DNA of 20,766 nucleotides, from IMG/VR virus record IMGVR_UViG_2600254997_000022; one strand, given 5' to 3'. The translations under genes and the position numbers were made by a program. The notes under the pieces were generated by a model. That model saw only the letters and a program-made list of their open reading frames with translations. It searched no databases and was not told the DNA's origin. The stretch comes from a virus. Lineage: Duplodnaviria > Heunggongvirae > Uroviricota > Caudoviricetes. Of this stretch, positions 5,819 to 7,804 are shown piece by piece. Numbering within the stretch: the first letter of the stretch is position 1; the number at the start of each line of letters is the position of its first letter.

Positions 5819-5972
5819 CTCAGGATTAAGGTTAGACTTGGCTATTTGCTGCTGCGGTTCCCCGGCATTTTCATCGGCGAGAAACTGAGCTCTTTTCTGC
5901 TCCCATGAACTGGCTGTTTGAACCGCCCCGGGAATCCTGGAGACTAAACTCCCTGAGAAAGAGGTAAACAGG

Positions 5973-6299
5973 ATGACTAAAAATACTCGTTTTTCCCCCG
6001 AAGTCCGTCAGAGGGCGATTCGTATGGTTCTGGAAAGTCAGGGCGAATATGACTCACAGTGGGCGGCAATTTGTTCCATTGCCCCAAAGATTGGCTGTAC
6101 ACCGGAGACTCTGCGTGTCTGGGTACGCCAGCATGAGCGGGATACCGGAGGCGGTGATGGCGGGCTCACCACCGCTGAACGTCAGCGTCTGAAAGAGCTG
6201 GAACGTGAAAATCGTGAACTGCGCCGCAGTAACGATATCCTTCGCCAGGCTTCCGCTTATTTTGCGAAGGCGGAGTTCGACCGCCTCTGGAAAAAGTGA
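5973..6299 (+). CDS. IS3-family transposase OrfA (108 aa)
   Basis: [30 protein letters not shown].. with a C-terminal leucine-zipper-like [13 protein letters not shown]. Overlaps the OrfB start in the -1 frame at an AAAAAG stretch (6291-6296). Confidence 0.85.
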
Positions 6300-7187
6300 T
6301 GCCACTGCTGGATAAGCTGCGTAAGCTGTACGGGGTCGGACCGGTATGCAGTGAACTACATATTGCCCCGTCAACGTATTACCACTGTCAGCAACAGCGA
6401 CATCATCCTGATAAACGCAGTGCCCGTGCGCAGCGCGATGACTGGCTGAAGAAAGAGATACTGCGCGTATACGATGGGAATCATCAGGTATACGGTGTGC
6501 GTAAAGTCTGGAGTCAGTTGTTACGGGAAGGAATCAGGGTAGCCAGATGTACAGTGGCGCGCCTCATGGCGGTTATGGGACTTGCCGGTGTTCTCCGGGG
6601 TAAAAAGGTCCGTACGACCATCAGCCGGAAAGCCGTTGCCGCAGGCGACCGCGTAAACCGTCAGTTCGTGGCAGAACGACCTGACCAGCTGTGGGTGGCT
6701 GATTTTACTTACGTCAGCACATGGCAGGGCTTCGTCTATGTGGCGTTCATCATTGATGTGTTTGCCGGATACATTGTGGGGTGGCGGGTCTCGATCGTCC
6801 ATGGAGACGACATTCGTGCTGGATGCACTGGAGCAGGCGTTATGGGCCCGTCGACCGTCCGGCACGGTCCATCACAGTGATAAAGGTTCTCAGTATGTAT
6901 CGCTGGCCTACACACAGCGGCTTAAGGAAGCCGGATTACTGGCATCAACAGGAAGTACAGGCGACTCGTATGACAACGCGATGGCGGAGAGCATCAATGG
7001 TCTTTACAAAGCGGAGGTAATACACCGTAAGAGCTGGAAAAACCGTGCAGAAGTGGAACTGGCCACACTCACGTGGGTGGACTGGTATAACAATCGACGA
7101 TTGCTGGAAAGGCTGGGCCATACTCCTCCGGCAGAAGCAGAAAAAGCTTATTATGCTTCCATCGGAAACGATGATCTGGCAGCCTGA
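6296..7187 (+). pseudogene. IS3-family transposase OrfB (DDE), split by a frameshift near 6790-6800
   Basis: Two overlapping ORFs (6296..6880 and 6738..7187) in different frames. The first Asp motif (LWVADFTY) is in one frame; the HHSDKGSQY and NAMAESING motifs are in the other. Confidence 0.7.
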
Positions 7188-7189
7188 GT

Positions 7190-7804
7190 TCACAGATAAA
7201 ACACTCTCCAGGAAACCCGGGGCGGTTCAGTTGGTAGTCCTGCTTCTATGTTCTTAAATTGCTGACGTTTTGCTTCCCATGCAGAAATATCTCCCACCTG
7301 AGAGATTTCTTTATCAAGCTCTGAGTAGTCAGGCTGCTGAAGATTGCGATGTTGACTGGTTTGTGCAAACTGCAAGATTTCACTGTCATCAGGGATTATT
7401 CCGGCATCTGCAAATTTACTTACGTAATTAGCCGTTTCATCTGGCAGTGTAGATTTACCGTTTCTGACGGCATTAATACGAGCATAGCCAGAATTATACC
7501 CAGCCAATGCCATACCAATATCACCAAATCGCTTCATTCCTTTATTGAGATGGTTTGCTGCGATATCCATTTGCTTTTCAAATGGCAGTGAGCGCGGATC
7601 AGTTCCACGATAACCAGCATCACTCATTACTGAGGGCATCAGTTGAGCAAATCCTCTAGCTCCTTTCGGTGACTCGGCACTTCCGTTACCACTAGATTCA
7701 TTGCCAACTAATGTTTCCATCGTCCCTGATGGGAAACCATATTTTTCATCGAGATGACGGGAATAGGCTTTCTGTTTTTCTGTCAGTTGTGCCATCATTG
7801 CCAT
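7190..7804 (-). CDS. N-terminal fragment of the disrupted protein: lytic transglycosylase (SLT) domain
   Basis: GNESSGNGSAESPKGARGFAQLMPS and ALAGYNSGYARI match the family-1 lytic transglycosylase catalytic motifs. Native sequence ends at 7233; the last 14 codons and the stop are read from the IS629-like right end. Confidence 0.7.
   Translation of the reverse strand: MAMMAQLTEKQKAYSRHLDEKYGFPSGTMETLVGNESSGNGSAESPKGARGFAQLMPSVMSDAGYRGTDPRSLPFEKQMDIAANHLNKGMKRFGDIGMALAGYNSGYARINAVRNGKSTLPDETANYVSKFADAGIIPDDSEILQFAQTSQHRNLQQPDYSELDKEISQVGDISAWEAKRQQFKNIEAGLPTEPPRVSWRVFYL

Follow-up and report, generated by a model that had tools for sequence, protein, structure and literature searches.

The sequence analysed here, referred to throughout as the window, is a stretch of 20,766 nt filed as a virus record (Caudoviricetes; IMG/VR IMGVR_UViG_2600254997_000022), and it is 100% identical, over the 11.8 kb compared, to contig ALNX01000005.1 of assembly GCA_000754045.1. 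The parent project, ALNX00000000, is Escherichia coli E851/71, which was included in a 2014 study of enteropathogenic (EPEC) and enterohaemorrhagic (EHEC) E. coli strains (PMC3897749). Within the window, an insertion sequence (IS) of the IS629/IS1203 type interrupts a gene whose product joins an N-terminal lytic transglycosylase (SLT) domain to a P22 gp16-type ejection protein. I refer to this gene as SLT-gp16; it lies on an island closely related to the phage satellite EcCIMP1. The features of the locus and its surroundings are collected in Table 1.

Table 1. Features of the IS, the interrupted gene and the neighbouring genes and RNAs, in window coordinates
Feature	Position	Strand	Basis or comment
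IS629/IS1203-type IS3-family insertion sequence	5919..7229	+	1311 bp: canonical 1310-bp copy plus one extra base
GTT, left copy of 3-bp target-site duplication	5916..5918	.	single GTT in empty sites of four other alleles
GTT, right copy of 3-bp target-site duplication	7230..7232	.	read from sequence; blastn overlap of 3 nt
IRL, left terminal inverted repeat, TGAACCGCCCCGGGAATCCTGGAGA	5919..5943	+	inverted-repeat search and end-motif search
IRR, right terminal inverted repeat	7205..7229	-	inverted-repeat search and end-motif search
orfA, 108 aa, HTH_Tnp_1	5973..6299	+	Pfam PF01527, E=1.8e-12; positions 1-86 of NCBIfam transpos_IS3 matched
ALIL pseudoknot (-1 programmed-frameshift stimulator, IS3 family)	6254..6370	+	Rfam RF01497
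orfB, DDE (rve) transposase	6296..7187	+	HTH_21 (PF13276) and rve; split into open reading frames (ORFs) 6296-6880 and 6738-7187
SLT-gp16, 5' fragment	7190..7798	-	codons 1-189 and two bases of codon 190, with the whole SLT domain, then an IS-encoded tail
SLT-gp16, 3' fragment (P22 gp16-type DNA-transfer part)	3763..5918	-	split into ORFs 4460-5818 and 3763-4488/4716
Inj_translocase (gp20, PF16928)	7795-9114	-	profile match
P22_gp7 (PF25688)	9114-9791	-	profile match
DUF2824 / phrog_651	9785-10246	-	profile match; gp14 position of the block
C4 antisense RNA	16178-16265	-	Rfam, 81 bits, above gathering score
isrK Hfq-binding RNA	16328-16407	-	Rfam, 57 bits, above gathering score

The insertion sequence

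A sequence-only reading of the window had proposed an IS629-like element flanked by GTT, and the ends that it gave are exact. The 14-nt end motif TGAACCGCCCCGGG is found in the 20.8-kb window only at 5919-5932 on the plus strand and 7216-7229 on the minus strand, where 0 occurrences are expected by chance. The element starts with TGAACCGCCCCGGGAATCCTGGAGA and closes with its near-perfect reverse complement, the two 25-nt arms being 92% complementary according to the inverted-repeat finder. Between these ends, orfA (HTH) and orfB (DDE/rve) overlap in the -1 frame, and the overlap holds both an A5G run (GGAAAAAGTGA), read directly from the sequence, and a frameshift-stimulating structure, the ALIL pseudoknot, which matches RF01497 over its full length (E=5e-30; 116.2 bits, where the gathering score is 50). 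This is the layout of the IS3 family, and the A5G run would be the slip site for the -1 frameshift.

The element shares with IS629, IS1203 and IS3411, which I take to belong to the IS51 group, its length of about 1310 bp, inverted repeats starting with TGAACCGCCCCGGG, the orfA/orfB arrangement, the A5G run, the ALIL and a 3-bp duplication; the imperfect inverted repeats of about 25 bp, the TG start and the CA end are likewise those of IS629/IS1203. Target duplications of IS629 are 3-4 bp long (Rump et al., 2011, PMC3271280), a range that includes the GTT seen here as well as the duplications that flank two reference copies of the element, AGT (3 bp) in E2348/69 and CAAC (4 bp) in 88_1577.

Leaving out its extra base, the element is 99.85% identical in nucleotide sequence to the copy in bovine strain 88_1577, 99.69% to that in EPEC E2348/69 (in which the OrfA product is identical at 108/108 residues) and 97.0% to that in strain M15. 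A copy in O157:H7 strain 8368, labelled 'IS3-like element IS1203 family' by NCBI, is 96.0% identical, with OrfA matching at 106/108 (98%) and OrfB at 285/296 (96%) residues. The window's element is thus closer to the EPEC E2348/69 and bovine variant (99.7-99.85%) than to the O157 variant of IS629, a closeness that fits E851/71 being an EPEC strain. The name given to the element rests on identity to the copy labelled IS1203 family by the NCBI annotation pipeline (PGAP), not on ISfinder entries. By the ISfinder rule, isoforms share at least 90% nucleotide identity with a named reference element, and the 96.0% identity to the IS1203-family copy lies above this threshold. Since IS629 sub-types differ by 4-5%, and since the isoforms of IS629 are taken to include IS1203 and IS3411 (PMC3271280), 'IS629-like' is a correct description.

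Alignment to two intact 1310-bp copies locates the extra base in orfB, as a +1 insertion of an A at about 6794 that turns CTCGTCG into CTCGATCG. It divides the rve domain between the two orfB ORFs, with the break after the first catalytic Asp of the DDE motif and before the second (motifs read from the sequence); with the base removed, orfB matches NCBIfam transpos_IS3 at E=6e-92. As written, this copy is unable to make an active transposase, and it would now be non-autonomous if the frameshift is real. The split within rve means that the copy does not encode an intact transposase, which concerns its present state and not its family membership. The truncated 193-aa OrfB, which elsewhere would be a sign of a defective copy mobilised in trans, was searched for across the contig collection and found only in the window's contig.

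The interrupted gene

The intact allele of SLT-gp16 is one continuous coding sequence of 2721 nt and 906 aa (WP_016243488.1). Outside its lesions, the window's copy differs from the intact allele of strain KK19-02 by 3 substitutions in 2721 nt (99.9% identical). The SLT domain occupies residues 15-117 (Pfam, E=1e-12) and a match to phrog_770, 'DNA transfer protein', occupies residues 187-862 (E=2e-120). The IS, in the orientation opposite to the gene, separates nt 569 of the coding sequence from nt 570 (codon 189/190), at the boundary between the N-terminal SLT module and the gp16-like module. Both fragments have precomputed matches to PF26808 (Phage_P22_gp16), and the SLT domain of the 5' fragment keeps its ES, GFAQLM and YNSG motifs, as read from the sequence. 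The start of this fragment was taken from the RefSeq annotation of the intact allele, the ORF list giving 7190-7804; beyond T190 the frame runs through 13 IS-encoded codons (EPPRVSWRVFYL) to a TGA inside the IRR.

A second lesion is found in the 3' fragment, where one inserted base at 4513 lengthens a run of A5 to A6; this causes a frameshift at codon 676 of the 906. The run is A5 in the four other alleles examined, M15 among them, and A6 only in the window's assembly.

The sequence-only reading had described the insertion as in-frame, on the ground that taking out the IS and one GTT fuses the upstream and downstream reading frames. Removal of 5919-7232 (1314 nt) does produce a continuous minus-strand ORF (...FKNIEAGLPTASSWEQKRAQF...), but the gene is not fully restored, because the +1 insertion at 4513 breaks the frame and the reconstructed ORF ends after 676 codons. 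Nor does 'in-frame' have a biological meaning here. The multiple of three is a coincidence of arithmetic, since a canonical element and its duplication amount to 1310 + 3 = 1313 nt and only the extra base makes 1314, and the stop 13 codons into the IS prevents read-through. For annotators, the practical consequence is that ORFs 7190-7804, 4460-5818 and 3763-4716 are pieces of a single 906-aa gene.

A scan of 5600-7900 for an outward promoter directed toward the 3' fragment returned no minus-strand site, and the total number of sites was below the shuffled expectation. Exact-product searches with the 452-aa and 241-aa fragments matched the source assembly only, although on a contig ending in the IS a gene caller could choose different starts.

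Empty sites and junctions

A 1-kb sequence reconstructed by removing the IS and one GTT was used as a probe against complete E. coli genomes, and the search was repeated with a 500-nt probe. Among 72 complete genomes carrying the gene, 71 have the site uninterrupted, each matching end to end in one unbroken piece. The 30 matches listed are 99.5-99.8% identical to the 1-kb probe, and each falls within a gene annotated 'lytic transglycosylase domain-containing protein'. Alignment of the reconstructed allele to intact homologues, which the sequence-only reading had suggested as a check, thus yields one continuous gene in all genomes except one, strain M15, in which a different IS disruption is found.

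The empty site of KK19-02 reads GAACTGGCTGTTGGTAGTCC, with a single GTT. A blastn comparison against this strain breaks the window at 5918/7230 into two pieces that overlap by exactly 3 subject nt, GTT, and the GTT on both flanks of the IS is therefore a genuine target duplication, as had been claimed. A 3-nt match between flanks has by itself a 1/64 chance of arising, which makes the empty site the decisive evidence.

A 500-nt probe laid over the left junction found no IS junction in 5,426 complete E. coli genomes, so that the insertion is not datable by phylogenetic distribution. A second assembly does contain it: the right-hand junction and the coding sequence of the 204-aa fusion product are both present on a Joint Genome Institute (JGI) contig (sample 3300015187, Ga0183249_107192). 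This contig is identical to window 7090-15643 and terminates 140 nt inside the IS, as is typical of short-read contigs. The insertion is thus seen in two assemblies and is confined to one lineage. The right junction reads GGTTCAGTTGG, and a junction sequence diagnostic of the insertion is GAACTGGCTGTTTGAACCGCCCCGGG; the insertion can serve as a strain marker for the E851/71 lineage.

Interpretation

The explanation that I consider almost certainly correct is that an IS629/IS1203-type element transposed into the SLT-gp16 ejection-protein gene of an EcCIMP1-like island in EPEC E851/71, with duplication of GTT. A staggered cut at the target, followed by repair, would have produced the 3-bp duplication. 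Translation from the native start would proceed 13 codons into the IRR and stop, giving an SLT-only protein of 202-204 aa, and the gp16-like 3' part would be left without a start. A full-length ejection protein would presumably not be made from the interrupted gene, and the full-length protein is probably needed for the island's ejection-protein function. The island may remain transferable nonetheless, because a helper phage supplies its own gp16. The event is of an already known kind, an ordinary IS629-type insertion with target duplication in a gene of a mobile element, and I found nothing that contradicts the insertion itself.

The further claim of the sequence-only reading, that this was a recent insertion that inactivated the gene, stands as regards the insertion and is likely as regards its being evolutionarily recent, but the IS is not demonstrable as the inactivating event, because the frameshift at 4513 also breaks the gene. 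Several observations weigh against the stronger form of the claim. The order of the two lesions cannot be read from the sequence, and the IS copy has a private substitution as well as its private frameshift, which sits poorly with a very recent arrival. Furthermore, private single-base indels relative to MP1 and KK19-02 occur at 4513, 16348 and 16376, the extra base of the IS (6794) being a fourth, and each of the four is a +1 insertion within a coding sequence. Two of them fall in the part covered by the JGI contig, and neither is present there. These insertions may therefore be assembly errors, and the internal sequence of the IS could be a consensus of several copies; the IS insertion itself is not an assembly error.

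If the lesion at 4513 came first, the gene was already a pseudogene when the IS arrived, and the insertion was a neutral hit in dead DNA. That lesion does truncate the frame and is private to this assembly, yet I regard this course of events as unlikely. As an extension of a homopolymer it may itself be an error, of the kind that the JGI contig contradicts at two other positions, and the near-identity of the rest of the gene to intact alleles argues against prolonged decay.

Is the gene a preferred target, with disruption favoured by selection? The exceptional genome, M15 (NZ_CP185789.1; L011 4321-7213), is the sole complete genome with a broken match, and its SLT-gp16 was hit independently by two elements, an IS4 flanked by a 12-bp duplication and an IS629-type element with a CAGT duplication. 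The latter is 97% identical to that of the window, has the same orientation and is inserted 215 nt closer to the 5' end of SLT-gp16. Together with the position of the window's IS at a domain boundary, which leaves the SLT domain intact, this second IS629-type insertion would suit a benefit to the island or host from loss of SLT-gp16 or from a free SLT domain. However, only two alleles among about 73 are disrupted, no promoter-like site reads from the IS toward the 3' fragment, and IS629 has a general bias toward prophage-like elements, with 62% of its copies in prophage-like DNA and no sequence-specific target (Rump et al., 2011, PMC3271280). Selection for the disruption is accordingly very improbable, and the broader proposition, that SLT-gp16 of EcCIMP1-like satellites is a gene that IS629 hits repeatedly and that its loss is tolerated or favoured, strikes me as only slightly less doubtful. 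The insertions in M15 and in the window could mean that a dispensable cargo gene tolerates them or that the region is preferred; two events do not suffice for a choice. If the proposition were true, an insertion at the boundary would turn an SLT-gp16 fusion delivered by virions into a free SLT enzyme, and this would suggest that the ejection proteins encoded by satellites, themselves hardly studied, have a role that is dispensable or costly.

It is extremely improbable that the assembler placed or collapsed the IS at a locus where the genome has none. Elements of the IS629 type are multicopy in E. coli (a median of 4 places per genome having any, and up to 53), and the private single-base insertions in this assembly are suspicious. 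Against this, both junctions are present, and the 3 bp that occur once in the empty site are perfectly duplicated around the IS, a pattern that an assembly error would not generate. The right junction and the fusion ORF also recur in the JGI assembly, which is independent; I therefore reject misassembly of the IS. Finally, there is next to no chance that the SLT and gp16-like parts are naturally separate genes whose fusion upon excision is coincidental, the finding that the sequence-only reading had named as the one to overturn it: the gp16 homologues of CUS-3, HK620 and epsilon34 do lack an SLT domain and align only from residue 175-211, near the insertion point, but all 71 close alleles are continuous across the site as one 906-aa coding sequence, phages Dewey and Huey share the fused architecture, and the interruption is a complete IS whose target duplication corresponds to the 3-nt overlap at the empty site.

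The island and its ejection-protein genes

EcCIMP1 is a phage-inducible chromosomal island (PICI) of E. coli MP1 that is mobilised by the P22-like phage Kapi1 (ISME J 2025, PMC11773190). Outside the IS, window 925-18244 is 98.2-98.8% identical to EcCIMP1 of MP1, and the coordinates of the match fall within the island interval given for that strain (PMC11773190). The window's island is thus nearly identical to one that has been characterised experimentally, although helper-phage-induced excision and transfer have been shown only for the MP1 copy with Kapi1 (PMC11773190). Its gene content is that of a PICI: an integrase, an AlpA-type regulator, a primase and PerC, all within an island length of about 15-20 kb, and no genes for capsid, tail or lysis. 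Window 925-20766 amounts to essentially the whole island.

The gene order of EcCIMP1 is kept, namely AntA antirepressor, Ash, primase (Toprim/DUF927), DUF2824, gp7-like, gp20-like, SLT-gp16, lipoprotein-like ORF, AlpA-like and PerC. The integrase module differs from that of EcCIMP1 and matches the CRE1540 module beside yicC (yicC-dinD interval), whereas EcCIMP1 of MP1 lies at tRNA-Thr next to proA; a further difference is that SLT-gp16 is interrupted by the IS in the window's island. The same island core is found near paoD/ykgR in KK19-02.

The virion-related genes of the island consist of the ejection-protein block only. SLT-gp16 is the last gene of this gp14-gp7-gp20-gp16-like block, and homologues of gp7 and gp20 lie directly upstream on the same strand. 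Its likeness to P22 gp16 is evident both from profiles (phrog_770 and PF26808) and from its position in synteny with gp7 and gp20, so that it can be classed as a P22 gp16-type gene with an added SLT domain. P22 gp16 itself presumably has no SLT domain, and the island protein differs in the same way from the homologues of CUS-3, HK620 and epsilon34. In phages Dewey and Huey, by contrast, the SLT domain is likewise fused to gp16, and their proteins are 46.7% identical to the island protein over residues 19-901. In contrast to the P22-like phages, the gp16-type gene here is located on a satellite island, and in E851/71 it is split by the IS. The report on EcCIMP1 identified no phage-like structural genes and called the proteins of the block 'DNA transfer' or hypothetical (PMC11773190).

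The insertion provides one data point on the decay of phage-satellite islands. To my mind the more interesting biology lies outside it, in an experimentally characterised satellite family with its own P22-type set of ejection proteins.

Other observations

Directly downstream of SLT-gp16, at 2914-3612 on the minus strand, lies an ORF of 232 aa that has a lipoprotein-type signal (LSLLAGC). It is conserved and occurs in all island copies examined; Pfam and PHROG gave no match for it.

Between 15644 and 16530 the window shows a cluster of six differences from the JGI contig, to which it is otherwise identical; they could stem from assembly error or from mixing with a paralogous region. Among the six are the private +1 insertions at 16348 and 16376, which split a 355-aa Ash-family gene into ORFs 16282-16788 and 15719-16351, and both are inside the isrK RNA match. 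The C4 and isrK matches adjoin the Ash and AntA antirepressor genes, an arrangement that, inside a satellite, resembles what I take to be the layout of the P1/P7 immI immunity region.

The primase gene is closely followed on its downstream side, at 10893-10974, by two copies of the repeat TGTTGGTTCAG and two of its inverse TGAACCAAC. The right junction of the IS, GGTTCAGTTGG, resembles the GTTGGTTCA repeats in this interval, a likeness that I regard as coincidence. The copy number of the repeats varies between strains (MP1, KK19-02), and they may be the replication-origin iterons of the island.

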